From Ascidiella aspersa (taxonomy: Eukaryota), in the NCBI GenBank assembly GCA_963924565.1, contig OZ004607.1, forward strand, positions 34,224,001-34,288,000: a stretch of 64,000 bases of DNA. Reading direction: 5' to 3'. Positions within the stretch are counted from its first letter, which is position 1, and each line of letters starts with the position of its first letter. Made by a program: the position numbers and the translations under genes. Shown here in pieces: positions 38,676 through 59,555 of this stretch. Below the pieces are notes generated by a model, which was given only the letters and a program-made list of their open reading frames with translations, was not told where the DNA came from and made no database searches.

Positions 38676-39827
38676 ACAACCAGGGGATAATCACGCAATT
38701 TTTGAAGGGTTTGCCATACAATGGTCAGAGTGACGTAAAAAGATTCTTGTAACACCGTGAAGTCATTGAACTGCTAGACGTAAGAAAGTAGTTTTTGATT
38801 AAACCCGTGAGAGAACATGCAATAGAAGTTTAAAAAAGGACTACAACACATAAGTTTATTTACTTTAAATAGGCACATTTTAAAATGTTGAAGAGTTTTT
38901 ATTTAGCTTCGTCAGACAGGTTTAAAAATGCAAGAAGATAAAAAAATATACGAAAATATAGTTTGGCGGTGTATTCTGATGCCCATCGATCCACTCTTGC
39001 AGGCAAATCAATAACACCTGTGTAATGTATAACACTTATAACATTAACCTATGCGTTTATTGTTTTCCAACAAGTAACCTGAGTTACCAGGCAAACATCA
39101 GATTTGCTCTCCCGTTTAACTTTCTTTGTCGCGATACAAGGCTGGGACATCCAGTCGTTGAAATACCCGAGCGACGGGTAACCACCTCGGCTTTGTTGAT
39201 GGGGAAATCACCTAACGGTTCAAAAAAACCTTTTTCATTACGTTTCAAATCGGAAAAGAGGAACCAACCGAAGAGGAACTACTTGTTGCCTGTACAGCGC
39301 CAGTGTTCGTTTTGCGTTTTGTTCATAGCGTGTGCAATGCATCCTTGCCTAATTTTGTGTGAAAATATGTACCGAGCGTATTCTGTCTCAGTTTAGTGCT
39401 GATCAGACGCTTTGCTGTTGATCAAACAGACCAAAGCAATGCTTGTTTTAAATTCGTCCAGATTTGACCTTCAGTCACTTTAGCTATTTCGGCACATTGG
39501 CTTTGTTTGCTAAAATGTTGCTATATAAACGCTCACACACACAATATGTCTATTTATGAAGTCATTCTGGAGTCGTACTGACCAACAAAAAACGGCAATT
39601 ATTATATATGTATTAGCCTACACCGGATGCCTTCGGAAAGGCTTAACGAAAAGCAGTCAGCTTAACCTGGATTGTAGTTCAAGCAAGGCCAGTATAGAAA
39701 AACATGTTGCTATTTAGAACGTTGTTATTCTATTTCAGCGAATATTGAGAACTGAAGCAATTTCGATTTCATTTCCTTTTTATCGTTTGATTGCATTTGT
39801 TATAGCAGTAAACACTGCGCTGCAAGT

Positions 39828-42800
39828 ATGTCGTACACGCCGTGGGATCAAATGGACGATTCGTCTGACGATTATATAGAGAAGTTGAAAGAGATGGGAT
39901 TCAACGAACAGCAAATACGAAAGGCTGTCAACGATACAGGTAACTGCAAAGCCACTGGCAATTTATTTCCGTTGCAGAGAAGCGAGTATTACGGTGACAT
40001 AGCTTTATGTGTGACTTCAGTGCGTTGTCTATATGTGCTTTGTTGTAGGCCCCTCAATAATAAGCTTCCTTGGCACTGTACTTTCGTTTTTGAACGATAT
40101 ACAGAAAGTCTTATGATTAGCTAGTTTAGCCGAGAAGCCTTGGCTTTTAAGTAGGGCAGCCTACGTACAAGGCATTCTCTGTTCTGTCAACATTGACTTT
40201 ACTATAGATCAATACATTCGAACCTGCCGCTTATGTGGAATCGGTTGTGTTGCTTTATTGTAGGGTTTCTACCAGATATGACAAACAATAAAATTAAATA
40301 TTCGTCATTGGATACATGTTTCACGAAAAGTTAGAATTTAGTACAGTACATGTTTCACTAAAGGCATTTATCAAGCTAAATACATAATCCTTGCATATGG
40401 CGTTCTGCAAAATCTGTTCGATACTTTGAAAGAGTAACTGAAGCTTTGTAATTAACCTCGTTTTGTATAAAAAACTTGGCTTACAAATCAACGATAAGAA
40501 TACTTGCAGAATTAAACTTCGCGTTAACCGTAAATGGTAATTAATGTATGAACCAGCGCCGCTGCGTTTTTAAGCAATAAAGTCTGCTTTGTCACTCAGG
40601 CAATAACAACAATTCGCTGCGCTTGCTATAATTATGAAGTTGTGGCCCTTCGCGGAAGTAACCAATGCGGCTCTTTATAGTCTCTTACTGGTTAGCCAAC
40701 CCTGTACTTCGCCTTAGTTTAACCGCCGTTATATCGCACATGTAACGAAGTTATTCGACGTCATATTACCTAACATTTTACTCAAATACTATTGCATATT
40801 TTCACAGGCGCTTCACCCTCCCAAGCATCCATGGAGCTTTTAACCGAGTATATGTTCAACAACCCTATCAGCAGTAAGTGTAAATGGGTACCACAAGGTC
40901 GATTCAATAAATGTCCACCACGTTTTCGCTTGCAGTGGTTGGTTTAAAATCAACCGTTGTGTTACGCAGGTAGTCAACCGAGCGGGTCTTACTACACACC
41001 CTCGTATGAATCGCACCAGGACGACTACTATGAACCAGAACATGATATTCCCCAATCTTCAAGCGCCTATTCGCAGCCTCAAGGTCAACGTAAGTTGTCT
41101 TATCGTATTTTGAAGCATCTTTGTGTAACATATAGGCTTTTCAACCGGTGGATCCTTTATTATAAGGATGCATATGTCAGTTACTTAACATTTATAAATA
41201 AAAAAGTTAAAAAAACAGATCACTTGCTTTTATAAAATATGATTATTTTCCCGTAATCTAACATTAATTATATAATTCGATTAGATTTTTTGTCGACAAA
41301 TTTGTATTTTATGTAACTTTCCGTATTATAACGATGCAGGTAGCCTACATTTTAACAGAGTGGTTTGAATCAGCGTAACATTTAGAATATAATTTGACAT
41401 GAAACATTTAAAAAACGCAGATGTCCCCTGTGGCATCATGTTCTAAGGCCACTAGTTTATAGTTTTAATTTGCCTTATGCTGTTTCAATACAGAACGCTC
41501 TGGACGTTATAGTGCTGTCCAAATTGTACGCCCTGGTCGGAATGGTTCGTTTGAAATGGACTCCAACGAGCTTGAACGGGTGTTTGGTCAAGTTGCTGAC
41601 GTACCAGTTGCTGTGTATTCCTTGGCTGGTGCATTCCGCAAAGGGAAGTCCTTCATGCTGAACCTGTTTCTTCGGTACCTGTGGTTCCAAAAGAAAGGAC
41701 AGGTTAGCCGCCAAAACTATAACTTCAGTTGTTACCGACCCTTACCTTCCCCAAACAATTAAAAATAGTTCACTGCCAAAACAGAGGCGTCCAAATGTCC
41801 ATAATAGAACAGCCACTTATGGTATAATAGATAGATCCGCTTTAGACACTGTATTGCTGTGTGCTCCCATTCAAATAAACTACGTATGTGTATGTGTTGC
41901 ATTAGCTTATACCAGTGCTACCCGACATTTTTTAGTTTGCGACCCACTTTTAATGCAAGTTTAATTGTGCGACCCACATGAGATTTGACGAAACGAATAA
42001 AATTACATAAAACCTGTATCTTCACTACTATCGTACCTACTGACATAGTCAATAGGACACAACACATCTAATTCTTACGGATTTGTGATATTGTTACATA
42101 AATGTTACATACTGATAATGCAATAGTTTCCCACTATAATAAAAAACTGTAACAATTAGAAATGCTTGTCAACCCAACTGAAATGGAAAACGATACCGGT
42201 ATGTTTATAAATTAATGGAGTGTTTCCACACGGCATACGAAGAGTTAGGTTGAACAAACGGCTAAACAAAACTGCCAGTTAACCTAGGAAGGCTTGGTCA
42301 GTTCTTTACAAATTATCAACTGTTTCCAAAGGTTTAAATTCCCAACAGGTTTAAAATGTCGGATCTTAAACAGGCCATCAAAAGTCTTCTTTTGAGCCAC
42401 TTTTCGTATAATTCTTGCATTGTCCCAAGCCTGAGTTAATAAGCTATACGAGAGTGTTCCCACGTTGATTATATTTTGAGAATTTTTCCATGTTAATTAT
42501 AATTGAACAGTGTTTTCATGGTCTTAATAGCATATACTGTGGTTACAGTCTAACAACTGGCTTTCCAACAAAAACGAGGAGGTGCGGAAAGGTTTTGGTT
42601 GGAGAGGCGGACATGATCGAGACACACAGGGAGTCTGGCTCTGGGATGAACCGTTTTTCATAAAAACACCGAGTGGCGAGGTAAGAAGGTACAGGCATGC
42701 TAAAAAGGCTCTAGTACCAACAAACTTGAATAAGTATTAACATAGATAACCATAATTATGTCAACTTGTTTATTATTTAACAATTCATTTGTAGCGACCC

Positions 42801-45800
42801 AACCAAAAACCTTTATACCAATATAATGAGGTCACTATTTTTCAAGTGGCATGTGTTGCAAGTCCCAAAATTGCCATTAATTGTACAGTAATTTAACGTT
42901 CTATTTTTAAGTAACAATTGACTGGTACTTAAGAAATTATAAGATTACTTATTTGAAACTCTGTGATATGTTGTGCTTTCAGGTTGCCTTGTTTCTGATG
43001 GATACACAAGGTTCGTTCGATCACAACACTCCGGTCCAAGGGTGCTCGGTCATTTTTGCTTTGAGCACAATGATAAGTTCCGTGCAAATCTACAACGTTA
43101 TGCAACAGATACAAGAAGATTCGCTTCAGCATTTGCAGGTAAAAAACAAAAGATAAAAATGATGAGACTATTTTTGTTTTAAATCGTATATCGCATAATA
43201 TTTTTAACTTTATTATTTCAGTTGTTCACCGATTACGGCAAAGCAGCATTCAAAACTCGCAAGCTTGAGGGAAAACCTTTCCAGGTAAGATCAAAGCTGT
43301 TTACTGTCTCAAATGCTTCTAAGATTCACAGGCTTATAACCAGGGTTACCATCTGCTAAAACCAAAAAATAAGCACGCTACTAATAACTCGGGGCAGATC
43401 CAGAATTTTTTAGATTGCATCCAAACATAAATAATCCTAATAACAATTGTCATTCTCAGCGTCAAAAAGAGCTTAATGGGGCGAAGCACAAAAAATGGTT
43501 TTATTTGGTTGAATTGGTAAAACTTTTAATATAAAAGAAAACATGTCGCCTTGATTTTACGCTATGAGCAAAGGATTACAATATAAAAGAAAGAAATATG
43601 CTACCATACATAAATTTCCTGTATATGACGCCACATGCTCTTACTGGGCAAAACAAAATTTAAAACTATTTCGGGAAAGACTAATTTACATCGTAGTATG
43701 ATCCTCTTTTGGGAAGATCATGTTCGGTCACTTGGTGTTTAATTAAATTTACTTACCTTATCTACAGAATTTGCTGTTTCTGGTTCGTGATTGGCCAGAC
43801 CCAGAAGTCTCTTTCGGCACGAAAGGCGGTAGAAGTGTTTTGAACAAGTTACTCACTTTGAAAATGAAACACAAAGACTTGGAATCGGTCCGGGAAAACT
43901 TAACGAATTCCTACGAGGACGTTTCCTGTTTTCTGATGCCCTATCCTGGACAGACAGTGGCCGTCAGGGGAAAAAGCCAGGGAAGTTCTCTGCGACTAAA
44001 AGGTAAACTATAAAATGAAATGCTATAAAAATGTACAGATGTGGCCATAGATGCGATTCTGAGTCTGACTCGGGACTTGACGGAGTCGTTTTGTTTTGCT
44101 GGAGTCAGAATCGTGACTCGAATAAGACTACGTAAAACTATCCGAGTCCAGAGTACGACGTGCGCATGCGCAGTACCTAATTTTAAAACTGTTATGGCCG
44201 GGAGAAATTCTGAATATACACCTTATTTAAGTTTCGTAAATTGGTGAAAGGCATGCTGTAGAGTCGGAGCCGGGCTCGGGACTCGACGAAATCGCACATT
44301 TAGCCGGACTCGGGGCTCCGGAGTCCAACTCGGTTTTATTTTATTGGCTGGATTTGGACTCGAGAATTGGACCCGGGTTATTTTTGACTGATCCGCAGTC
44401 CTGGATGTAGGTCATCCGTTTATACGAGTTTGAAAGTTGTAATTAATTTGCATATGTAAACCAATCATGCGATTACCGGAATCCAACCGTTATTATTTGT
44501 TTGCATGTTCCAACAAATATTGTAAATGAACGTTTTATCCTTACAGATGTTGATCCGAAGTTTTTGCACCACTTGGATGAGCTTGTTCAGCATCTGTTTT
44601 CACCCCAAACAATCGTCATCAAGAGATTCAATGGCAATATTGTCAACGGGAGAGATCTGATCAACTTTATGCTGGCTTACTTCGAGGTGTTTAAAAGTGG
44701 ATCGATGCCTAAAGTTGGCAATATTTTGCAGGTATACCGGGCCTTGGTTTAGAGTTCGCGCGTATATTTAAAGAAAATAGTCAAAACATAGGTAGTTTAA
44801 TGTAAAAAAATGGGATTTTATAAGAAGTGAGTCAAACCAGAGTAGGCCTAATTATTATTGTTGGTAAATAAACCAGGTGTATTATGATACGTTTTTTCCA
44901 CCGTTGAGAACCGCCAAACTTGGTTATGCCTACTCCGAACTTTAAAATCGGGAAGCTGTGAGTCGAAAATGTTTGCACATCAGTGGCGTGAAAAGAAAAA
45001 TAAAGTTGTGCTCGTTCTTTCGCTGTTTAAAGTTAACAATATGCGTTAAACTCACAAAATAAAGAAATCAAAAAAAAAAAAAAAAAAAAAAAGTTTTGGT
45101 AGCGTTTCTTGCCTAGCCATTGTTTAGACTTTTCTTGGTGAATTAAAGTAAGCGGTAATAAATCGACATCGGCGCCCACTCGCTGTACACCGTATCTCCT
45201 ACGCGATAATGCGCACTGACTATAGAGAAACCAAGCCCACACTGTTTTTTCTGTTTGCAGGCCAGCGCAAAAGCTGCCATGATCACCGTCATTCAACAAT
45301 GCAAGGAAACCTACGCGAAAGAAATGAGCAAGGTTGGTAAAGAGTCAAACCTATCTTTTAAACACCTAGGACTAAACTTACCAAATACCGCTTTGCCCTT
45401 GGCATATTACACATTTCCCAACCGATGCTCTGCGGTAACAAAAACAAGCTGAAACACTAAAATTACGGGTTGTCCAGATGCATTTCATTTCAGTTATGAT
45501 TTTTTTTTATTTCAGTTTTGTTTTTATGTTGCTTGGTGCAGGTTTTTGAGCAGGTTGGTTTCTTGGAAGGCCAAAAACTTTGTAAACGGCACGAAAACAA
45601 CATGCAACTGGCCTTGTCTCAATACGACGGTCTTCCCAAGCTCGGAGACGATTCATTTATTACCAAGTCCAGACGGAACTTGATCGATCTAATAAACCAG
45701 CAGTTTGCTGTCCACGAGCAAACTAACATCGCTCAAATGGTAAATTTTACGGCCGCGCTAAACTTAATGTTGAGCTTTTTTGACAATTATGGTCCCAAGT

Positions 45801-48800
45801 AGAATCAGCCGCTGAATTGTTATAGAACCGAAAGTTAAAAGTGTAATATGTAGAAGTTATATTCCTACGTAACCTCCAAGTATAAAGTGCTTACATATTT
45901 ATACAATTTTCTATTACTAGCTAACAATTTCAACACTTTAAATACTTTAATTCGAGTTGTCACAGAATAATTTTTTAACACGTTAATTTTAAACCGTGTC
46001 TTCATCCTTGTTTACAATGAATGGTATTTCAGGAAAGGATGAAAAATCAAGTTCGTGATGTTGTAGCAGAAGCCGAACAACAATATTTAACCAGCCTCGA
46101 AACTGTGAGTTTACTTCTGCAGTTGTACATTGTCAGTGTAATGAAACGATAAACGTCACAACTATCACTAATAAGAACTAAATCAATGGTTTCTCGAAAG
46201 GTTGCAAATAACACAATTTAAAATCCATTTACAACTATTCGTTTTAGTTTCAAACTGTCTTTTATTACACCCAAACACAGTAGCAAAGCTAAACCTAATT
46301 CCATCTTGGCGTTTTACAACACGGCATCCATAAAAGTTACGAGCTATTGTCAGTTTATAGCCTGCTTGTAGTTCGGGTTGTGTTCGGGTTGCACTTAGAG
46401 CCGTAACACAGACGTAAAAGCATGCGGTTGGATTCCATGTCGTTTTTTTTACAGCTGTAAGCATCGTTTCTTGCATGTTAACATGCCGATGAGATAAAAA
46501 GCGTTCAAACTTTAAATTTAAAAAGCTTGACTGGTTAACTTAATATGAAACCAGTTTGCCAATGGCGAATTCATGGATGGCGAGGAATTTCGCCGAGCGG
46601 ATGATGAGAGCCGTAAAGCCGCCTTGGCCTTGTACAAGCAAAACACTAGAGAATGTCCGCCAAAGTTCGTGAAGAAATACAAAGACAAGCTCGTCGAGCT
46701 TATGGAGCAAGCACTCAAGCGCTTCAGAGAGGGAAACAACCACAGAAGGGTAATATTGCCTTTTTCTATTCACGTCACGCGAAGTGTAAGCTGCATAGGG
46801 AATACCCATTAGCGTGCAGCGGGTTTTGTCATTGCACCTTTCTTGCGAAAACAAGTACAGTATTATTCTCGCCAGGAAGAGGTTCATTTAAATATAATTT
46901 TTTTTGTGTTACCTGATATGACTGAAAATAAATCTTTCAGTTCCACAATAAGGATAGGAAAAAACATTTTAATACAATTTCATTCTATGCAAATTCGGTT
47001 AATCTTATACTCCAGTGCTTCTAGTGCTGCACATGTTTGTACTTTTTATGATGTCACGTTTTAAAGTAATTTTCTGATATCGTGTTAAAAGTCATTCCTC
47101 CCCCCCAAAAATGCCCTTAATATAATCTATAACGGTGGTTCTCAACCGCCGGTCCGCGGAGCTTTTTAGTTGCATACTTTTGTCATATTTGCATTTTGGG
47201 TTGATTTTGATATTTGAAGGTCAACCGATCCGCAAAATTTGTTTTGAAATTGTACCGGTCCGTAAGATAAAAAAGGTTGAGAACCACTGATCTATAATGA
47301 CGTTTAAAATATTTTAATCTAAAGCATATAAAGCAATATACATACCGTTTTAAACATCTTCAATGCCATTAAATGACCCGTAAGCTAATATTTTTTTTGT
47401 TATGTAGGACGAGTTGCGACGTGGGATCGAGAGTCAAAAGTTTGCGGCCCTCGATGCTTACGCAAAAGGAATGGACGAGGTAACAGATATTCGCGTGTTT
47501 CACTTCTGTTGCTGAAACATATAGGCTAAATTGCTTCAAAACTTGAACTTTGTGTGTTTATATCGAACTTTTTCTTCTGCTATAGTACGGTGGAAACATA
47601 GCCAAATATACATTATAGAGAGAAAATTTGTCTTTTGCCACAAAGACGTGATATATAAGTTACAAGTAGGACAAATAGGCTACAACTATAAACAATATTA
47701 TGGAGACTCTGCTATCAAACAACAAGGACTATTTTATTTCTCAACACGCCCCAAACTAACACAAACCATTTGTTAACAAGCAATAACACATTTCTTAACA
47801 GCGGTAACCAGCACAGAGTCCTTTCTTAACCGGATTTAAACCATCTTTTGGCATGCAGTAATTTATTCCCCAGCGGCACTAAAGTATTTTGTAAAAAACA
47901 ACAAAGCACACCTTATTTAGCACCAACTATTTCGTAATAAGAAAAAAAATCATTCCTTTCGTTGCAGCAATGCAGGGACACTTTCCTGGAAGATCACGAT
48001 TTCGAAAATGCTCACGAAACATCGCAGAGAAACGCGCTGGAAATTTTTGATTCCTCCGAAGTCGGAAGAGGAACTGATCTTAGAAACGAAGAGCGGGAAA
48101 GACTTCTAAGGAAAATCGGGGAAGAACAAAGGAAGATGAAACAGACCAACGACATTAACAAAGTGATTTATATAAATACTTTTCTACTTGAAATACCAAG
48201 CTCTGTGTTTTTTGATTAACCTTATTATATTTACCTTGCGATTGGAGATACATTTCATCGTCACTGTTGCTTATGCTTGGTTAATCGTTTTTGCCTTTCT
48301 ACTTTAAAATACATTTTCCTAATCAACAATTGTCTTGTGTTTTGCAGAAACTAGCGCATGCCAAGACACTTGAAGCAATGAACCAGGCTAAGAACTTATA
48401 CAATACTGCAATGCAAGATGTAAGTATAGGCCTGACCTATAGGCTGCAGGTAGTGGGCTACAGAACTATTACACTAGCCTCGGTATTGTTAAAATCAGTT
48501 CTATTTACCAGGGTATACTGAAACAGTTTCGCACAGGGAAAACAGTGCTTTGCGACCGTTTTTCGGTGGTGTACCTTTAATAACTTATTAAAAACTTCGT
48601 ATAGGTTCACCTCACTACTTTGCACCCAAAGTAGAAAAAAACTAATATAAAACCATGTTAATTGGTAATACATCTGGCCACAAAACGAAGGAACCGGAGT
48701 AGTTGCTAGTAGTAAAAAAATGCAGCACAGATCACGTAAATGAAAAGAAAATAACACAGGTATGACATGCACACATACTGACCTAATCCATATAGGCCAG

Positions 48801-51800
48801 GGGTGTCCAACTCAAACATGCCGGCGTGCCAGTTTTTTATCTTATAACTTCTTCCCGTGCCGAAGTTTAATAAATAATTTAGAATATTGAAAGCGATTTT
48901 TTTAAGTAATAAAAACGTTTATTTGCACATAAAAAACATTTCTTTATTTAATCAAGCAAACCATTCATATTTAACTAAAAGCTTAGGTAGGCTAACTATG
49001 TAAAGGCTAGCCTCCACTACAGTATAATGTTATAATATCAGTTACAAGTAATTGTTAGTTGTCGAAATTGTTTAATATTGTGAATAAACAATAACCATTG
49101 GCTGTATAACAAATTAAGCATGTTTTGACAATTTGCTGGATAAGAAATTAAGTATTTTAAATTGGCTGGGGCTTGTGTGCCATTTTTTATTAGGTCGCGT
49201 GCCACATGTTGGAAACCCCTAACATAGGCCCACCCTTCGTATACCTCTTATCAGTTGTGCATCCTGGCTTTGATTCGGTTTTACACCCGAATATACAGTA
49301 TAGGCTACCCGGCACTGATATACACTACCGTACACTAAGAGCACATCAAACCGTTGCTAATATTTTTTATAGGCCGGCATTTCTGAGTACACAGAAGAAT
49401 CTCGTCTCAAAGAAGCACATCGTGAAGGCAAAAAACAAGCCCAAGCAATCATCATGTCATTAGCGCAAGACAACCAGGCTTTGGCTGAACATTGCCGCTC
49501 ACAACTGGACGAATTTCTCGACAACGAATTCGACATGATCAAGCGTAGAAACGAAAACTTGGGGGTAGGCTAACTCACGGCGGCCGGACGGTTACTTTTC
49601 AAAAGAATTCCTAAGTTTTGGAGCATAATGGTTGGAGGTTGTAGTAAGACGTAATAAGAATATCAAAGCCCATACAGAAGTAGGTATCATTTTAAACGTT
49701 TCGAATAACTCTTTATTCATTTTCAACATAGAGAGAAGGCACTGATGGTAAGTGTATATATAATGCTAAGGCAGACGTCAGAAAGAAGGAAACGTGGAGA
49801 GATACACTATCTAAAACTCCTAATTAGTTGTATTATACAACAACTTGTATACCCAGAAAGGATGTAGCTGTGCATTTTTAGCCAGGTTTATTTTTGTAAG
49901 CACTTTAATTTGGTGATTTTTCGTGGTTATAAAATGCAGGGATGTTTAGTAAAGGTAATAGATAACGGAGGCTGGTTTCTCATAAAGCATGTTCCCATCC
50001 CTCGTTAAAAATCCCTTACAACGCTAAAATTCGTACCGACAGATTGGCAGACAAACCTTGATAGATAGAAAAACATACATAAAAATATTTCGCTAAATCT
50101 ATCCTTATTCTTTACTAGAATCATTTTAGATTTGAACTTCAGCCATTTTTAGATTTGAATTAAAATTACCAGAGGAGCTGTTTTTGTATTTGTATTACTA
50201 TGCCTGGTAGCAACAGTTTACATATTAAACTTAAGAATTACAATTACCACAAGTCCCCAACTTTTAAAAACTTTTTACGAATTTCCTTGAACTTAATTTC
50301 CCATTGTTACGTCAGAAAAGCAAAATACAATTTTTAAACAGAAGGCAAGACACTTTTGTCCAGTTTGTTATGCGTGTTTAAATTCGAGACGCTGGTCTGG
50401 AATCCTACCACAACAAGCTCAACTATTTGGGTTACGATGCGCGTTTGGGTTTGGGTGGGTTAAGCAATATTATTAATAATAAATTTCAAAGAATTAGAAA
50501 AAAAATAATAATAATTCAAAGAATTAGAAAACTAGAATTATCTAGTTGTCCAAGTCTGCCTAATACCCAATCGCTAACCCAAATAATGTGCGTTACTTTG
50601 AAAATTGTTTTAACGGTGTGGCAGGATTCTAGACCTGCGCCAAATTCGATTCCTATTGACCCTGGTTTAGGTTTAACAGACTTAAACTTAGCGTCGTGAC
50701 ATTTTTTACAGAAACTGAAAACACCAATAAAATAATTTCAAAAATGTGGGTCACCTTCTAGTTATTAAATTCACTTTCTAATTCGTTTATTTTGTTTTAC
50801 AGCAAAAGGCACGAAATGGATTTGAGAAAGCAAAGAACAACGCCTACATATTCTACCAACGAGGAATCGACGAGGTAACTTAACTAAAAAGAGGCAGACT
50901 ATGTGATAGAAATCTTCTAGTACAGCTTACTTTTATTCCAGTACAACTTACTTTTTTATATTTTTCAAGTTAGCATTACGATTAACGATCAGTGATCAAT
51001 AAATCTTTAAAAAAAAGAGTATCCTATTGACTTTTTTCGCGGGCTTGAATTACGCAACATGTTATAATGTACTTTGATAAAAAAGTAAATTTGAACTTTA
51101 ATTAAAGATCCAATATATAATGATGTTAAGTGCAAGTGAACCACAGTACAGTGTTTGATGAATGGTTATACATATAATGGTAACCAATGTAAATTATTGT
51201 ACAACTTTGACAAAAACAACTGCAATTTGTATTTCATATCTCAAGGAAAGTTTTTCCTGATTGGTCCACAACCTAAAAAAATTATCTTTTTTACTTGTAA
51301 AACTAAATCAGAGCTACAGCTAGATTTGTCAAATTATCTGTTTTGATTATTATTTTTTTTTGCTTTAAACAGCTACGTCCAGAAAGTTAAATCTTCCAAC
51401 AAACTGCAAAATCCCTTTTTCCACGTTTTTTACAAGATGCATGAGAAATAACTCAATTTTCTAATAACTTGTGAATTTAGTTTATGTTTGTTAGAGGTAT
51501 GCTTTCAAAAATCAAACTACAAGAAAAAGGGTGACACAGCCCTATTTTGTAAATAACATTTCCAAAGACAAGATGTTTTGATAATAGCTTATCTAGGAAA
51601 CAATAAACTACTGCTAAGTTTGCAAGCGTAAAGAAAAATAACCTACAAAAACATATATTTGAATTTATTTATTTTCCAAATATATTTTCTATCTTTATAT
51701 GAAAACGAATAATAACAAACAGTAATCTCATAAACAGAGGCAAGTGAATTTAAAAAAAACAAAGCAAAGGTGAATTTTAAACAATGCTTTTCATTTATTT

Positions 51801-54800
51801 ATGTAAGTTGGTCTTACCACATAAACAAAAAAATATTGAATAGAAATCTATGAAATAAAAAATCTACCATTTACTAATATATGTTAGCTTTAGGTGTTAT
51901 AGGTTTTCCCAAATTTCCTTGTCATCTTTCCAAACAATTTTCCAACGACTAGGTTGTTCACAGTCATCACCTTTGGATTCAGAACAGATTCTGTTAAAAG
52001 TATGGTCCCTGTTAAAGCACATGATTTCACGCTCTTCCTGGATCCTAAAAGAGAATGTCGATTCTTTTGTGCCCATAAAATAGCGTGCATGTGAGCAAAT
52101 TATTTGGTCTATAATAGCAACACCGCCCATTTTATATTGTTTCATTTGCTTTTTGCTAGGTGTAAACATAACCATCTCAGGTAGTAAGCTTTTCAGATCA
52201 TCCATTTCTTCTTCAGTACCATCAGATGCGATGAACACCTTGTCAACTTGAAATTCAGCCATCTTCTTCTTAAGATGATCGGCAACTGTCTTTAAGGATG
52301 GCACGTATTCTTTTCTTGCATAGAGGAAATCTTTTCTTCTTAAATGTGCAGCGATGTATGGGCCCCCCAAAGCAGTTACCCCCTCGCAGGAGTGGTCTTT
52401 CCAATTCGGCGGGATGACAGTCTTGTCTTTCATGTCATCAGAGTCCAAAAATTCTTTGCGAAATTGATTGGCCTCATTTATCAACATATCAGAAAAGATC
52501 ATACTTCTCCGACAGTCCCAGTAGTTTTTGCCGCCGAACATGTCATGAAGCATGTTTTCTGCACGATCTAACATGATGGACTTTGCAGTTGTGTTTGTCC
52601 CGCACAGAGGTTTAATAAAGATGTCAGATTGGCCCTGCACAGAGACGCACTTAAACGAGTGGGCATATGTTTCTTCATAACCCCAGAACCAGCCCCTGAT
52701 TGTGTTGGTGTCCTCGTCAGTTTCGTAAACAGGTGGTTCTAGGCACTCGCGCTGGTGCATTTTTTCAACCCACTCTCCCGACGTCCAACCTTCAGCGTAG
52801 TTTTGCAAATACCACACTTCGTCGATAGCTGGTTCACCAATTTCCTCGACATAATCACTGTACTCCAAAACTGGAACATGAAGGCCTAAACTTTTTATAT
52901 TGAAAAATTTTGACCATGGGATTTTGCTCTGTTCCATATCACTTTCTTTCCAATGATACCCAATTCTACCCCAAGGTGGTAGAACTAAAGTCCAGTCGTA
53001 TTTTTTACAATCGTCACTTTCTCTCATTGCCTTCACAAGATTGGCAACTCTCATGTAGACATCTCTCCTAAGGTTAAAGCCCTCACCTGGATTGCAGTCG
53101 TACAGCAAATAGCGCTTCTGCTTTTCAGCCGCTGTACTCAGACAAATGAAAAGTGACAGTGATATGAATTTCAGAAACATCCTCATTGGTCCTAAATATA
53201 TATAAAAAATTATTAATTTATACAAATACTTTAAAATCATAGTTCTTGATTTTTTAAAGATACAACATCAAAGAACTGAATGACTTGAATAATACATTTT
53301 ATCATAATAATAAACTGTGACCTACAAGTTTTTAATATTAAAACAACACAAAATCCATAATAGATTTAATTAGAAGGTTATTTTTAAGTTTAACATTTAG
53401 TTTTTTTTTTAAAACCATATTTTAAGATGTGAAATTATGTTTGTTTGAACATCTGAATCTGAGGTTTAAAAAATTCAAATTTTTTTTTAAATTAAAATGG
53501 TGCACACAAATAAATAAAAGATGTGATTGAGCACTGGCTTAATAAAATTGTGATTTTACACCTGTCTTAAAACATGGACTGGACTGTATACCTGAAAAGA
53601 GTGAACCATACCCTAGGTTCTGAACTCTACAACAATTCAAACTTAAAAATTAAGTAGTGCAACTTACTAATTCAGGTTTGCGCACAGATTTTTCATAAAG
53701 TCTTAGGTGTGCACTTTTTTATACTTGATACAATAAAGGTCTCAACTTAATTTTAAGTTAATTTACTGTTCAGCAGAGCTACTGCATTTAATTGCTATAA
53801 CTTACTGTGAAGCACAACTATATCAATGACAGAAAATAATTTAACCTTTCTCAAATAATTTCACTATTGTAGCCTGTTAAAGTTTTTACTGCCGCAGGGC
53901 ACAACATAAAAAATCGGGCAGCCATTGACTGAATTGCACGGCTTTTGTGAGGGCCACGTGAAAAACTGTAAGCCCGAGGGCAAAAGCTGTTAAAACATGA
54001 CGTGGCAACACAAAACATTTGATACATCACCTTCTTATCCCAGCAGATAAAGTTACATTTTTGTTTTTGAATTCACTAAAACGTGCTGATTAGGCTTGTA
54101 AACTTTCGCCGTGGCAAATACTGAACTGACTTTATTTACTTATTTTTAAATTAAAAGTTCTGCTGTGCCTCCATTTTATGTCTGTTTAAAAACAGAAAAA
54201 CTAACGTTACCAGCATTTTGGTAGGGAGCTAACTTTAAAAACATATCACATGTTTAATTAAAAAATTATTTAATTCCAAAACAATCTAGCAATATACGAA
54301 TCAAGTTTAAAATAACTATACGAACGTTAAAAGTCGTACCAATCGGTAACAACCATAAACCGGTGCATAATACATTTCTATACTAAATAACACGTTATTT
54401 GTGTGAAGTAGTGACAATTTAAATTGATAGGTAGACAAGTGAATCATGTTTTAACTAGTACAACATGTACATCGGGGTCTTAGAAGGCAAGAAAGTTATT
54501 TCGTTCTGGTTCTTAATTTGAAGGATTTGCTCAGGCATGACCACTACGTCTGTTGGTCATGCAAGACTGAACTTGTGTGTACACAAAGTCTGGCGATAGC
54601 TGTGTGTTGGTCAAAAAAAATTGGCGACAATAAACACCCGATCCGTTAGAAATCAGTGCATTTCTAAGCAAAAAGGTCTACGACAATCAGGGCATCCAAT
54701 GGCAGAAAAGTCTAGACTTTGAGGTCCTGGCAATGCACTGATTTGGACCTTAAGGTAAACTCCCGGCGGAGATAAATGAAAAATATTCATTAAAAGTTCA

Positions 54801-56991
54801 GAAAAAATAACAAAAAATATGAGATAGGATTAATAACACTTGACCCACCTAAACCCTAACGCTAACCCGAATCCTAACCCAAATAATGTGCGTTATTTTA
54901 ATAATTCTTTAAATGCTGGGGAAAAAAGCCCAAACTCGGATGGGCATAAGATGGTTTCTCGTCCATTGTATTTAAGATTATTACGTCACAAATTGAGGTA
55001 TTGGGTCCTGAAGCTGAAGCGTTATAATTATTAAATTATCGCACATTATTTGGGTTAAGGCGCTGGTTAGCGTTTGGGTTTGGTTGGGTCAAGTATTGTT
55101 AAATTTAATCTTCTTATGCACATTTGTTAATGCAACTTAGTGCATTGTCCAAGACATCAAAGTCTAAAAGTCGGACTTTTTGATCCTTTGAATGCACTGA
55201 TTGTCATAGACCTTTTTGCTTAGAACTGCACTGATTTCTGACGGATGGGGTGCAATAAACCACACGGTGGTATTATATGCGACATTTCTCTACAATCACA
55301 ACAGAGCTAATGAATCATTTTTGTCGAAACTATACAATTAAATTTTTTTACCAAATATACAATTTCAAGATTTCACTGCGTTGCCAAAAAAGACATACAA
55401 AACTCAACATTCACTTAACAAACAATTTTTTGGTCATGTTGTCATTATATTTGCATTACAGTAATAATAATTTTACAATCGTTATTTAAAGAATAATCAT
55501 TAATGCTTAAAATAGTTTTAAATTACACACATCCTAATTGCATTCTATATATTATAGGGACTCAAAAAATATTTTTTTACCTTAATCTTATGCCCAACTT
55601 CTCTAACGGAAAGGGACTGAAATGCAATCAGGCCCAATTGCATTCCAGTGTGTTTCCGCCAGAGATCTTTGGCATGGAATGCTTGCCAAAAATCACGCCG
55701 GTGACATCATTAATTATGAAACATCACTGGGCTTGTGAATTTACCAATACAAAATTGTCTTTTTGGCTTATATATTGTCTTATTTTAGTGTGGGATTTCA
55801 GCGAGAAAAAAATTTAGCGTGAATATTTGGCGGCATTAATAAATTTGTTTGGTTCACTAGTGTTTGAGTAAACAATTCATCAAAAATATTTTACTTTTTT
55901 AAAGATATTACTGTTTTACACAAGAAAAATGGTTTCTAGTGCCCACAGCGATAAACAAAACATGTAAATATGGAAATAATACATAAGTCGTTTTTCTGAT
56001 AAGATCACCCTATTAAGACAAACATATTTTTGTAGTTAGGCTAATACATGTTACGTTGCTTGTGAAATATCCCTTAAGGTGTATATAATTAGTGCAATTT
56101 TGATATTTATAACAAAAAAGGTTTTGTTGTAATATTGATCTGGACAACAAAATTATACTAAACAGGCTTAGTATAAATGAAATTACTGGAAGAGGTCAAT
56201 GGAGAAATTTGTCTTTTCAAAGATGCAACTTTTGTCGCTGTGTAACCCAATATACTTTTATATTTCTCCATTTTTTTTTTTAAGTATTTAAAACCTATTT
56301 TAAGGGATCACAAAAATTTGAAGAAGAGCAATACTTAAACAGAAGACACGAACAACTCAAGAATGGAGCTCTTCAAGATTATGAACGAAACACTGACAAA
56401 CGACCGCTAACAGATTTTCAGGAATTTCATCGCAAGCTAGATGAGGACATTGAAAAGCACTTTGTTGCAGTTAAGGAAAGAAATGCAGAAAACAAGGTAT
56501 TTGTTGTCATATCCTTTTAAATAAATGTACTGGAGTGCTGTATTGCCTAATACAACTGCTTGGGACAAGCAATACTTTTAAACAAGAAAATTCCTAGTAA
56601 GAAGACGATTTATGTTCACTTTAAAACTCTTTGTGCTCTAAAGCTCTCTCAATTGGCATTAAGATTGTCAACTGTTTTCTTGAATCATACATAACTGTAG
56701 ACACATTTAGTGGCCCAATTTAAGAATCATGCAAATGCTGTTAAGCCTTTTCTTTCCAAACTTTAATCATCGGAAAGAGTAAATCATAAAAAGAAGGTGC
56801 ATCTTATTTTGATGTGCAATTGTCAGTATTTGCATGACAGATGCTGATGATTAATTTATGACTGCACTAGGAAACTAGCATGTTTAGCAAAAGTAAGGCA
56901 CAGGTTCAAACCAAATTAGATTTCTAATACCTACTTCTGACGACATAGTTGTTATGTTAAAAACCTAAAAAAATGGTGTTTAACTATTCGC

Positions 56992-57026
<35 letters not shown>

Positions 57027-58119
57027 TTCTCTTGTTATAATTGAAAGCTGGATTTAAAAATGAGAAGTGGTAAATTAAAAACATCTTTATTTCTTTTATT
57101 CATGCTTGTTCATATATTTGAAATATGCAACACACATTTAAAACATTCAGTATTATAAGACAAAATGTATACAGAAAAATAGCCTTAGATATATTATAAG
57201 TATATGTAAATAATATAAACCGGCAACTGTTTTCCTTTAAATTTTGTTTGCAAAAGTTTAAACTGCGTTCTGTTTTTTCAGCAAAGAGTTGTGGAGAAGG
57301 CAGATAAAGCCTTAGAAGATATCAAAGAAGAATACCTAAAAACTATGAATGAAGTAAGTTTTGCAAAGATTTAATGTTTTTCAAAATAATTTTTTTAGTG
57401 TGTGGTCTAATGCATTCGGTATTTACTAGCTATAAATCAAACCCAGCTTACTTACATATACCTTCAACTTTTTGTTTACCCTTGGCCGCTTTCTTGATTG
57501 TAAAACTTGCTAGGGTTTTATAATTTCCAATCTGGCTTCATTAATTTAGCTTTGTGACGGAAGATCAGTTGAACCAGAAGAATTGGAAAAGTTTCACCGC
57601 AAAATTTTGGAAATGAGTGATGCGAAAATCCACCAAACACTTGGAAACAAGGAAATTGCAGATCGGATATCAAAGAAACTTCATCGCTATGCCGATGCGG
57701 AACTTCCAAAACTGAAAGAAAACAACAAGAAAGGCGCATCAATTTGGATTCGAAAAGTGTTAGCTGCACTGCCACAAGCACTTATGCATGGCGCACAGAT
57801 GTTCTTCACCAACATCAGCCATCCTAAACGAGCAGTAATGGCTGGACTTGCTGGCGCTGCAAGTTTGGTGAGCGGCGTATTTTCAGATGACAAAGAAGGT
57901 GACAAGAAGCAAGATGCCGCCTTGGACAAGTTTACCCAGCAAAAGTGGGAATCTCTCTCCCCATCAACAAGCGTTGATCCTAAACCTGAAAAGCCGGCAT
58001 CTTATAAAACCGAAGCCCCTCCTCCATACACAAGACAGGCTCCTCGGAGCTCTAAGTCAAATACTCCACAACAATCCTCTTCACAAGAAAGAAAAATGAC
58101 CCCGGAGAGTTTGGACTAG
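39828..58119 (+). CDS. Atlastin-family (GB1/RHD3) large GTPase with N-terminal UBA-like domain and six tandem three-helix-bundle repeats, isoform A (~1083 aa, 21 coding exons)
   Basis: Exons: 39828-39939, 40808-40873, 40970-41089, 41494-41702, 42549-42680, 42983-43138, 43222-43284, 43768-44002, 44547-44731, then pairs 45261-45332/45542-45739, 46033-46104/46555-46749, 47408-47479/47968-48162, 48348-48419/49373-49564, 50803-50874/56305-56496, 57282-57353/57550-58119; total 3252 nt, open frame. G1 GAFRKGKS, G2 [15 protein letters not shown]3 [22 protein letters not shown] and G4 FLVRDW all match atlastin. UBA-like segment [18 protein letters not shown]...ELLTEYMF. Confidence 0.9.
44046..44403. 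mobile_element. Degenerate MITE with GGAGTC/GACTC subterminal repeats
   Basis: Many GAGTC/GACTC motifs, right end GATCCGCAGTCCTG, possible TSD GATGTGGC / GATGTAGG (6/8 match), and internal palindrome TGCGCATGCGCA. Confidence 0.6.
47133..47289. mobile_element. hAT/Charlie-type MITE (157 bp)
   Basis: TIRs CGGTGGTTCTCAACC / GGTTGAGAACCACTG; exact 8-bp TSD ATCTATAA at 47125-47132 and 47290-47297. Confidence 0.9.
48798..49221. mobile_element. hAT-type MITE
   Basis: TIRs CAGGGGTGTCCAAC / GTTGGAAACCCCTA; 8-bp TSD ATATAGGC / ACATAGGC (7/8 match). Confidence 0.82.
50388..50641. mobile_element. MITE related internally to the 54635-55252 element
   Basis: TIRs GACGCTGGTCTGGAATCCTACCACA / TGTGGCAGGATTCTAGACCTGCGCC; exact TSD AAATTCGA (50380-50387, 50642-50649). 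Shares TAACCCAAATAATGTGCGTTA and GCGTTTGGGTTTGG motifs with the 54.6-kb element. Confidence 0.8.
51897..53186 (-). CDS. POFUT2: GDP-fucose protein O-fucosyltransferase 2 (~429 aa), intronless CDS nested antisense in an intron of the atlastin-like gene
   Basis: Motifs [22 protein letters not shown] (catalytic Glu), [49 protein letters not shown]. Signal peptide [21 protein letters not shown] minus-strand acceptor (tatatttag|gaccaATG, exon starting 53191) places the start at 53186 rather than 53240. Minus-strand AATAAA at 51794-51799. Confidence 0.95.
   Translation of the reverse strand: MRMFLKFISLSLFICLSTAAEKQKRYLLYDCNPGEGFNLRRDVYMRVANLVKAMRESDDCKKYDWTLVLPPWGRIGYHWKESDMEQSKIPWSKFFNIKSLGLHVPVLEYSDYVEEIGEPAIDEVWYLQNYAEGWTSGEWVEKMHQRECLEPPVYETDEDTNTIRGWFWGYEETYAHSFKCVSVQGQSDIFIKPLCGTNTTAKSIMLDRAENMLHDMFGGKNYWDCRRSMIFSDMLINEANQFRKEFLDSDDMKDKTVIPPNWKDHSCEGVTALGGPYIAAHLRRKDFLYARKEYVPSLKTVADHLKKKMAEFQVDKVFIASDGTEEEMDDLKSLLPEMVMFTPSKKQMKQYKMGGVAIIDQIICSHARYFMGTKESTFSFRIQEEREIMCFNRDHTFNRICSESKGDDCEQPSRWKIVWKDDKEIWENL
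54635..55252. mobile_element. Long-TIR foldback MITE (possibly Mutator-like) with CCCTAA-like internal motifs
   Basis: Imperfect palindrome: ATCCGTTAGAAATCAGTGCATTTCTAAGCAAAAAGGTCTACGACAATCAG versus CTGATTGTCATAGACCTTTTTGCTTAGAACTGCACTGATTTCTGACGGAT. Inner inverted TAACCCAAATAATGTGCG / CGCACATTATTTGGGTTA. Flanked by the direct repeat CAATAAA(C). Confidence 0.85.
56995..57022. repeat. (AT)n microsatellite
   Basis: Uninterrupted AT run in an intron. Confidence 0.9.
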
Positions 58120-59222: not shown

Positions 59223-59555
59223 CTCTGCGACGGCAAGTACGTGGATCCGACAGCGTTGCAAGATGCGCACGACAAAGTACTCCAAGAACTGAAGCAGGAA
59301 TGCAGAGAAAAGCTGCGCGGGTACGACGATCTGGCTAATAAATTGCTCGCGGCATGCAGCTCTCAACTGGAAACCCTGTTTGAGCAAGTCAAAGCCAACA
59401 ATGAGAATAACAAGTCAACTTGGCTGCGCAAACAGGGCAGTGCCTTGTGGTCTGCAACCAAAGGAGCCGCTTATGGGTTCTTTTTTGCACCCCCTGGCTT
59501 TCGTCTTTTCGGGGCTGCCATAGGTGGTATAATTGGCTACATAAAGGGATTGTGA
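59223..59555 (+). CDS. Alternative terminal exon (isoform B, ~1004 aa) of the atlastin-like gene; paralogous to exon 57550-58119
   Basis: Phase-0 acceptor gctttcag| at 59222. Begins LCDGKYVDPTALQDAH versus [16 protein letters not shown] in the other terminal exon, and the two share N..K..S.W.RK. Ends in a hydrophobic Gly-rich segment and TGA, with AATAAA at 59796-59801. Confidence 0.8.
   Translation, partial: LCDGKYVDPTALQDAHDKVLQELKQECREKLRGYDDLANKLLAACSSQLETLFEQVKANNENNKSTWLRKQGSALWSATKGAAYGFFFAPPGFRLFGAAIGGIIGYIKGL

Follow-up and report, generated by a model that had tools for sequence, protein, structure and literature searches.

Could a GTPase of the atlastin kind carry a ubiquitin reader of its own? 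The question is raised by a locus of Ascidiella aspersa that lies within a 64,000-nt stretch of contig OZ004607.1 (positions 34,224,001 to 34,288,000; hereafter the window, to which coordinates refer unless a contig or locus is named), where a preliminary description proposed a UBA-like domain fused to the N-terminus of an atlastin GTPase at 39828–41089. The gene extends well past these limits. Our model, on the forward strand, consists of 21 GT-AG exons that run stop-free from 39828 to 58119, or to 59555 when the alternative last exon is used; the protein has 1083 amino acids with last exon A and 1004 with last exon B. The UBA-like part occupies residues 14–54, followed by a Ser/Tyr/Gln linker (55–101) and the GTPase (102–426).

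Exon 1 (39828–39939) starts with the ATG at 39828 and encodes residues 1–37, comprising an acidic leader, UBA helix 1, the MGF loop (39894–39902) and helix 2, and ends in a phase-1 donor. Exon 2 (40808–40873; residues 38–59) supplies a lengthened loop and UBA helix 3, which ends at about 40857. Exon 3 (40970–41089; residues 60–99) encodes a little conserved Ser/Tyr/Gln/Pro linker, and exon 4 (41494–41702; Pfam GBP, E = 3e-8) opens the GTPase with the P-loop GAFRKGKS (41628–41651). All these exons have AG/GT ends and introns 1–3 are all in phase 1, so that an open frame leads from the UBA-like exons into the GTPase with no stop. The peptide of exons 1 and 2 and the Ser/Tyr/Gln-rich linker after it, as originally read, are indeed present and can be spliced in frame.

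The GTPase continues through exon 5 (42549–42680; switch I, catalytic Thr retained), exon 6 (42983–43138; DTQG of switch II; Pfam GBP, E = 2e-18), exon 7 (43222–43284), exon 8 (43768–44002; RD motif and guanine-cap region; Pfam GBP, E = 1.5e-8) and exon 9 (44547–44731), which holds its end and the crossover linker. Its motifs (GAFRKGKS, switch I Thr, DTQG and RD) are intact. The stalk is made of six repeats, each encoded by a 72-base exon and a 192–198-base exon, all in phase 0: bundle 1 (45261–45739; exons 10, 45261–45332, and 11, 45542–45739; helical in a model of a Clavelina relative), bundle 2 (46033–46749; exons 12, 46033–46104, and 13, 46555–46749), bundle 3 (47408–48162; exons 14, 47408–47479, and 15, 47968–48162), bundle 4 (48348–49564; exons 16, 48348–48419, and 17, 49373–49564) and bundle 5 (50803–56496; exons 18, 50803–50874, and 19, 56305–56496), the last of which spans an intron with a nested gene and has its exon pair also in a paralogue. 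Bundle 6 opens in exon 20 (57282–57353) and ends in the last exon, either A (57550–58119), which adds an amphipathic Gly/Ala-rich tail with a PPPY motif (58018–58029), or B (59223–59555), with an amphipathic Gly-rich tail.

The gene nested in intron 18 (51897–53267, reverse strand) is intronless and encodes a separate protein, an O-fucosyltransferase (Pfam O-FucT, E = 3e-50) that we take to be POFUT2-like. It is one of three intronless housekeeping genes encountered, together with a canonical atlastin (L040, 4093–5679) and a NEDD8-like gene (L118, 1495–1728); these are possibly retrocopies that replaced their parent genes. Polyubiquitin repeats at C2:24.096–24.100 Mb are split by introns, as is every ubiquitin repeat found. 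Upstream in the window lies a thrombospondin gene (about 8881–32400, forward strand) with type 1, type 3 and C-terminal domains. Several introns between 41601 and 56300 contain high-copy repeats, with summed contig depth rising to several hundred thousand near 49600–50270.

The closest relatives of the encoded protein are ascidian proteins. Two of them from Clavelina lepadiformis, LOC143462270 (XP_076816473) and LOC143463183 (XP_076817702), match it end to end (about 950–990 residues, 36–37% identity) and have the same UBA-like start, GTPase, six-bundle stalk and tails (of type B and A, respectively); independent GenBank models show the same layout. Both are databased as 'uncharacterized protein' with GBP as their sole precomputed Pfam domain, the UBA being unannotated. 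The relatives were drawn from the best 120 of 948 and the best 150 of 4650 matches, so their taxonomic range is a lower bound; among the 304 GTPase proteins retrieved in these best-match sets, a UBA-like domain was found in just the two Clavelina loci (four whole and two partial records), which is what the proposed search for UBA plus GBP/atlastin architectures yields for the matches listed. Isoforms X2 and X3 of LOC143463183 diverge from isoform X1 directly after the Gly aligned with split codon 38 (Gly38) of the Ascidiella gene, and this breakpoint points to an intron common to both species.

Identity with the Clavelina protein P0027 amounts to 15/41 residues in the UBA, 171/316 in the GTPase and 156/524 in the stalk; the UBA of P0031 gives 10/41, and the linker of exon 3 gives 5/23 (P0027) and 6/24 aligned residues. 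Tail A matches P0031 (score 84) and tail B matches P0027 (score 102), neither score being reached in 1000 shuffles, while the cross pairs gave no match (247 and 41 of 1000 shuffles). In the Clavelina records, each of two genes has a single tail, whereas Ascidiella has one gene with two last exons; the Clavelina proteins also differ in a shorter linker and an imperfect ubiquitin patch. Together, the in-frame exon chain and the Clavelina proteins of the same layout support the predicted fusion of a UBA to an atlastin-type GTPase, and on this point the preliminary description holds.

Whether the N-terminus is a UBA domain was approached by several profile comparisons. Exon 1 alone matched Pfam UBA with E = 0.001 and 19.3 bits (gathering cut-off, 22.4), and six of the eight Pfam families that it matched are UBA, UBA-like, ubiquitin-binding by name, or DUF7626. 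Exons 1 and 2 together scored 16.1 bits on a profile that we built from 12 further UBA domains of the same genome, a value reached by none of 500 shuffles, with exon 2 contributing 0.2 bit beyond exon 1. Residues 14–56 align with P0027 (score 72) and P0031 (score 47), and none of 2000 shuffles reached either score; exon 2 on its own gave no significant similarity to these two proteins (81 and 770 of 2000 shuffles). By HHalign, a profile built from exon 1 and both Clavelina domains matched 10 UBA domains of the genome with a probability of 94.9% (E = 4.7e-8); the match took in helices 1 to 3 and had seven residues inserted. Compared with the other UBA domains, the loop that joins helix 2 to helix 3 has 5–7 extra residues. 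The Clavelina N-termini reached E = 0.075 and 0.16 against UBA-type Pfam families, and the whole Clavelina proteins gave no UBA match in Pfam. A PDB sequence search with exon 1 alone returned 15 weak matches, none of them UBA; with a three-row profile, three of seven weak matches were UBA proteins (best E = 0.024). In the ESM Atlas, the N-terminal part gave a best score of 0.81, which we treat as a lead, and residues 15–420 retrieved GBP/atlastin-type clusters, none listed with a UBA.

Structure prediction was carried out for the Clavelina relative's domain. Its model has three helices (pLDDT 83), and its top five Foldseek and top five VIA rows are all UBA-bearing chains, including those of UBAP1 (ESCRT-I, the top match), Ube2K, Rad23, Dsk2 and Ede1. 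These matches are modest (best Z 6.5, Foldseek E about 1), with EF-Ts and RuvA, which do not bind ubiquitin, close behind. The profile comparison and this predicted fold speak for the UBA-like domain first noticed in the sequence; we consider it very probable that the N-terminal domain has a UBA fold, albeit a divergent one, a prediction that comes from modelling the Clavelina protein.

In most UBA domains, ubiquitin is contacted by the MGF loop together with an LL/V pair where helix 3 ends (PMC3240630). In the assembled Ascidiella allele the loop (M23-G24-F25) is intact, as is the helix-3 pair, the 'LL/V' position being occupied by M53-F54, hydrophobic residues other than the usual LL/V; a visible LL at 48–49 was rejected as the pair, because the alignment places M53-F54 there. 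By alignment, then, the Ascidiella domain keeps MGF and a hydrophobic pair at the ubiquitin-binding positions. The patch is imperfect in Clavelina, with MGY and L-S in P0027 and MSF and L-I in P0031. The predicted domain is, in our view, somewhat more likely than not to bind ubiquitin, and we hold this with clearly less assurance than the fold.

We then asked which kind of GTPase the domain is joined to. An AlphaFold model built for the Clavelina relative from a 44-row alignment (mean pLDDT 81, pTM 0.51) has bundles bridged by helices of 52–56 residues, from which a staggered-bundle stalk is predicted; the counterpart of the linker has pLDDT <50. A fold search with this model placed ATL1 and ATL3 nearest, above RNF112 and the GBPs (identity 32–37% for atlastins, 16–21% for GBPs and 19–22% for RNF112). 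By its modelled fold, the GTPase is of atlastin type and not of GBP type. No 19-residue window exceeds a hydropathy of 1.8, vs 16 and 25 such windows in true atlastins, so no transmembrane hairpin was detected; the peak values, 1.41 and 1.44, lie in the tails and compare with 2.34 and 2.35 in true atlastins. Both tails carry amphipathic, Gly/Ala-rich helices, and neither ends in a CaaX isoprenylation motif. Neither a cysteine nor a RING pattern was found in spliced residues 1–100. The original label 'atlastin GTPase' is apt for the motifs and modelled fold, but the protein is not an atlastin proper: it has six bundles and no hairpin, and a true atlastin is encoded elsewhere in the genome.

The UBA-like domain is labile, being lost through an allele, through decay of a paralogue and through alternative first exons. 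A stretch at 40586–40980, which includes exon 2 (helix 3), intron 2 and the exon-3 acceptor, is missing in a second allele. The joint of 40585 to 40981 occurs in both DNA runs, at 34.7x in run X1 (one contig) and 160x in run X2 (two contigs). In run X1 its depth, 34.7 vs 44 for the assembled form, is like that of a heterozygote; in run X2 nothing covers 40597–40941, and exon 2 is uncovered. As the region of exons 2 and 3 is single-copy in the assembly, the joint is most likely a second allele, and on the same ground a paralogue artefact was rejected. No long repeat was found at the deletion ends, and the second allele also differs at about 40141–40538. Splicing from exon 1 to exon 4 would stay in frame; use of the candidate acceptor that the joint may create would break it. 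In the X2 allele, a difference at 39944 turns the intron-1 donor into GTAAG and another at 39887 turns Leu20 into Phe; the donor looks kept or improved in this run without exon 2. Exon 10 shows five clustered differences in run X1 (45315–45321, no X2 cover), which may reflect either a further divergent allele or paralogous sequence. At a distance of 140 kb, the nearest paralogue retains the start of exon 1, some 640 bases ahead of its P-loop exon, but has a stop after an MGF-like loop, has lost the donor there and lacks exons 2 and 3. An intact UBA exon was found in none of 45 paralogue 5′ regions (0.8–7.5 kb each), the nearest paralogue alone having a remnant. In Clavelina, isoforms X2 and X3 swap the first exon and so are without the UBA. 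The domain is thus dispensable in some chromosomes.

Such lability raises the alternative that the fold is real yet does not read ubiquitin on targets, being an optional or fading module, kept for a protein contact or on its way to being lost, while the GTPase works without it. The deletion allele seen in both runs, the in-frame skip of exons 2 and 3, the decayed paralogue, the UBA-less Clavelina isoforms, the imperfect ubiquitin patches in that species, and the presence of UBA folds with no ubiquitin role in the list of structural matches all fit this reading. On the other hand, the UBA is conserved against Clavelina like the stalk, unlike the adjoining linker, and both the MGF loop and the helix-3 pair persist in the assembled allele. 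We regard this alternative as unlikely, though it is the strongest of those considered.

The tails bear on another possibility. PPxY motifs are linked to NEDD4-type ligases, and coupled mono-ubiquitylation is known for proteins that bear ubiquitin-binding domains. The UBA might accordingly act in cis: a ligase recruited through PPxY would ubiquitylate the GTPase, and the UBA would bind that ubiquitin, serving as an off-switch or as a shield against degradation. A PPxY motif is present in tail A of the Ascidiella gene (PPPY) and in the A-type tail of P0031 (PPSY), but the B-tail form and P0027 have the UBA and lack PPxY, and we find such a role quite improbable.

Searching the genome with a GBP profile gave 125 matches (145 of 183 candidates scored). 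Exon 4 by itself, used as the query for homologues, recovered none of 45 candidates. There are at least 55 GTPase loci, counted from 55 separate switch II matches; many are clustered in tandem, and one is the canonical atlastin of the genome (G000:C2:4449162), intronless and with a hairpin. Tandem atlastin-like clusters were seen in the assembly (G000) at C6:27.02–27.39, C6:11.53–11.65, C6:5.19–5.25, C3:7.67–7.95, C2:14.28–14.36 and C2:6.37–6.40 Mb. The number of bundle repeats varies among 10 mapped loci, and loci C3:7.673 and C3:7.766 match both tail types, the former in two separate places. In a quick tree of 57 rows, 28 of them paralogues (L066 dropped as too short, about 17 fetched loci left out, and no outgroup, GBP or RNF112 row included), the Ascidiella UBA gene falls in a nine-row clade of its own genome (support 97). 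The UBA forms of Clavelina sit in a clade of their own species (95), and a 32-row ascidian clade (94) encloses the two groups. The canonical-atlastin clade (94) holds the genome's own atlastin and excludes the UBA gene. The UBA-bearing forms are not one clade; given the common intron and tails, one gain of the UBA followed by many losses would be the simplest reading. We infer that the expansion and turnover of the family resemble those of defence genes.

No Pfam match above cut-off was obtained for other N-terminal domains in 33 upstream frames of the paralogues, picked by hand from 152 frames scored as coding-like and one further frame. UBA-looking frames in L065 and in L075/L077/L086 were rejected as unsupported, and all-against-all clustering of upstream frames was dominated by recent duplicates. 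ORFs of about 160 codons lie about 1 kb before the P-loop exon in divergent paralogues (L075, 2109–2588; L077, 2315–2794; L086, 3695–4174; L092, 5761–6246); they have no Pfam match and may encode N-terminal domains of an unknown kind. A non-coding block upstream of the UBA gene (39125–39319, forward strand), common with paralogue L037 (78% over 206 bp), is a candidate promoter. With the patterns that we assumed for NF-kB-like and IRF-like (GAAA-N-GAAA) promoter motifs, neither was enriched (107 matches vs 101 expected, and 0.11 vs 0.08 per kb, respectively), and an immune promoter signature was rejected. The 5′ region of L033 has four IRF-like GAAA-N-GAAA matches about 740–1520 bases before its P-loop exon, the most of 46 regions.

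The protein could also be a housekeeping or developmental membrane remodeller, acting in endosomes, autophagy or ER tethering in the manner of Sey1p or RNF112, in which the UBA would find ubiquitylated cargo or organelles and no defence role would exist. This would suit the atlastin-type GTPase, UBAP1 of ESCRT-I as the top fold match, the unenriched immune motifs, and a stalk predicted to form staggered bundles like those of Sey1p, whose length matters for fusion according to the cited section of PMC4576867. It sits poorly with the missing transmembrane hairpin, a separate canonical atlastin in the genome, a species-specific tandem expansion of high turnover and a common loss allele, and in our judgment its probability is low. 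Finally, that exons 1–3 are not spliced to the GTPase in Ascidiella and the fusion is a modelling artefact, as might be argued from exon 2 having no significant Clavelina similarity on its own, is highly improbable in view of the matching intron phases without stops, the two Clavelina RefSeq and independent GenBank models of the same layout, the same split codon in Clavelina, and the start of exon 1 retained by the paralogue some 640 bases ahead of its P-loop exon.

The family can be placed among known systems as follows. With ATL1-3 and the genome's own atlastin the protein has in common the GAFRKGKS P-loop with its arginine finger, the switch I Thr, DTQG and RD, and these are the nearest solved folds; atlastins differ in having one bundle instead of six, a transmembrane hairpin, no folded N-terminal domain, and a separate clade. 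RNF112/neurolastin is likewise an atlastin-related GTPase with an N-terminal ubiquitin-system domain, in its case a RING; its structures rank below those of atlastins, and a RING writes ubiquitin where a UBA would read it. Vertebrate GBPs (GBP1 and others) have a related GTPase, a helical stalk and tandem expansion as in the Ascidiella family, but show lower fold similarity to the UBA gene's relative than atlastin does. According to PMC11746146, GBPs need isoprenylation, whereas the Ascidiella tails end without CaaX. Sey1p/RHD3 has staggered three-helix bundles in which the last helix of one runs into the next, as in the Clavelina model; Sey1p, as described in the relevant section of PMC4576867, has four bundles and transmembrane segments, whereas the UBA gene has six and none and its GTPase is nearer atlastin. 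Silkworm BmAtlastin-n is likewise an atlastin-type GTPase with a long helical region, no transmembrane segments and antiviral activity; it has 770 aa, no N-terminal UBA appears in the portion of PMC4926086 cited here, and the likeness is drawn from its description. Hsp70-family domains are found in further long proteins of the atlastin-like kind (mayfly, springtail and others), and a kinase in Clavelina P0049; records with extra domains are P0023, P0029, P0030, P0034, P0035, P0038, P0040, P0041, P0044, P0045 and P0049, and P0037 has an N-terminal extension of about 150 residues without a Pfam match. In the literature searched we found no description of a UBA-atlastin fusion or of this ascidian GTPase family, which supplements of genome papers could list.

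The reading that we tentatively put first, short of an even chance, is that of a GBP-like defence GTPase which would read ubiquitin by itself, with no adaptor. It draws on analogy with two systems: p62 brings murine GBPs to ubiquitinated vacuoles (PMC4802790), the ubiquitin reader there being a separate protein and here predicted to be built in, and in the silkworm an atlastin that lacks transmembrane segments acts against viruses (PMC4926086). The UBA, on its flexible linker, would tether the GTPase to a vacuole or microbe through the ubiquitin that marks it. Crossover dimerisation, reported for atlastins and GBP1 in PMC11746146, would be driven by GTP. The long stalk would position the amphipathic tail on the membrane, the tail would anchor there, and the anchored GTPase would coat or deform the target membrane. 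Alleles, isoforms and paralogues without the UBA would find their targets differently, or be carried along in heterodimers by the form that has it. The defence role, like the binding of ubiquitin, the crossover dimers formed on GTP and the attachment of the tail to membranes, is what we infer for this protein. A bolder version, which we hold to be distinctly unlikely, is that ascidians rebuilt GBP-like cell-autonomous defence on an atlastin basis. There would be dozens of soluble GTPases with long stalks, and one, equipped with its own ubiquitin reader, would nucleate a coat on ubiquitylated microbes and so merge the jobs of p62 and GBPs; the choice of first exon, together with a presence/absence allele that the population maintains, would toggle the reader.

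The domain layout is conserved and appears to be new; hairpin-less atlastins were already known. If the domain does not bind ubiquitin, it is still one that databases do not annotate, on an expanded family so far undescribed. The exon-paired six-bundle stalk provides a natural ruler of stalk length, and the alleles, isoforms and paralogues that occur naturally with or without the UBA offer controls for the ubiquitin steering of membrane-coating GTPases. If ubiquitin is bound, this would be a dynamin-superfamily GTPase that reads ubiquitin directly. GBPs are reported missing in Ciona in the cited part of PMC4926086; if the proposed reading is true, the sister group of vertebrates would have reached a GBP-like design from atlastin.
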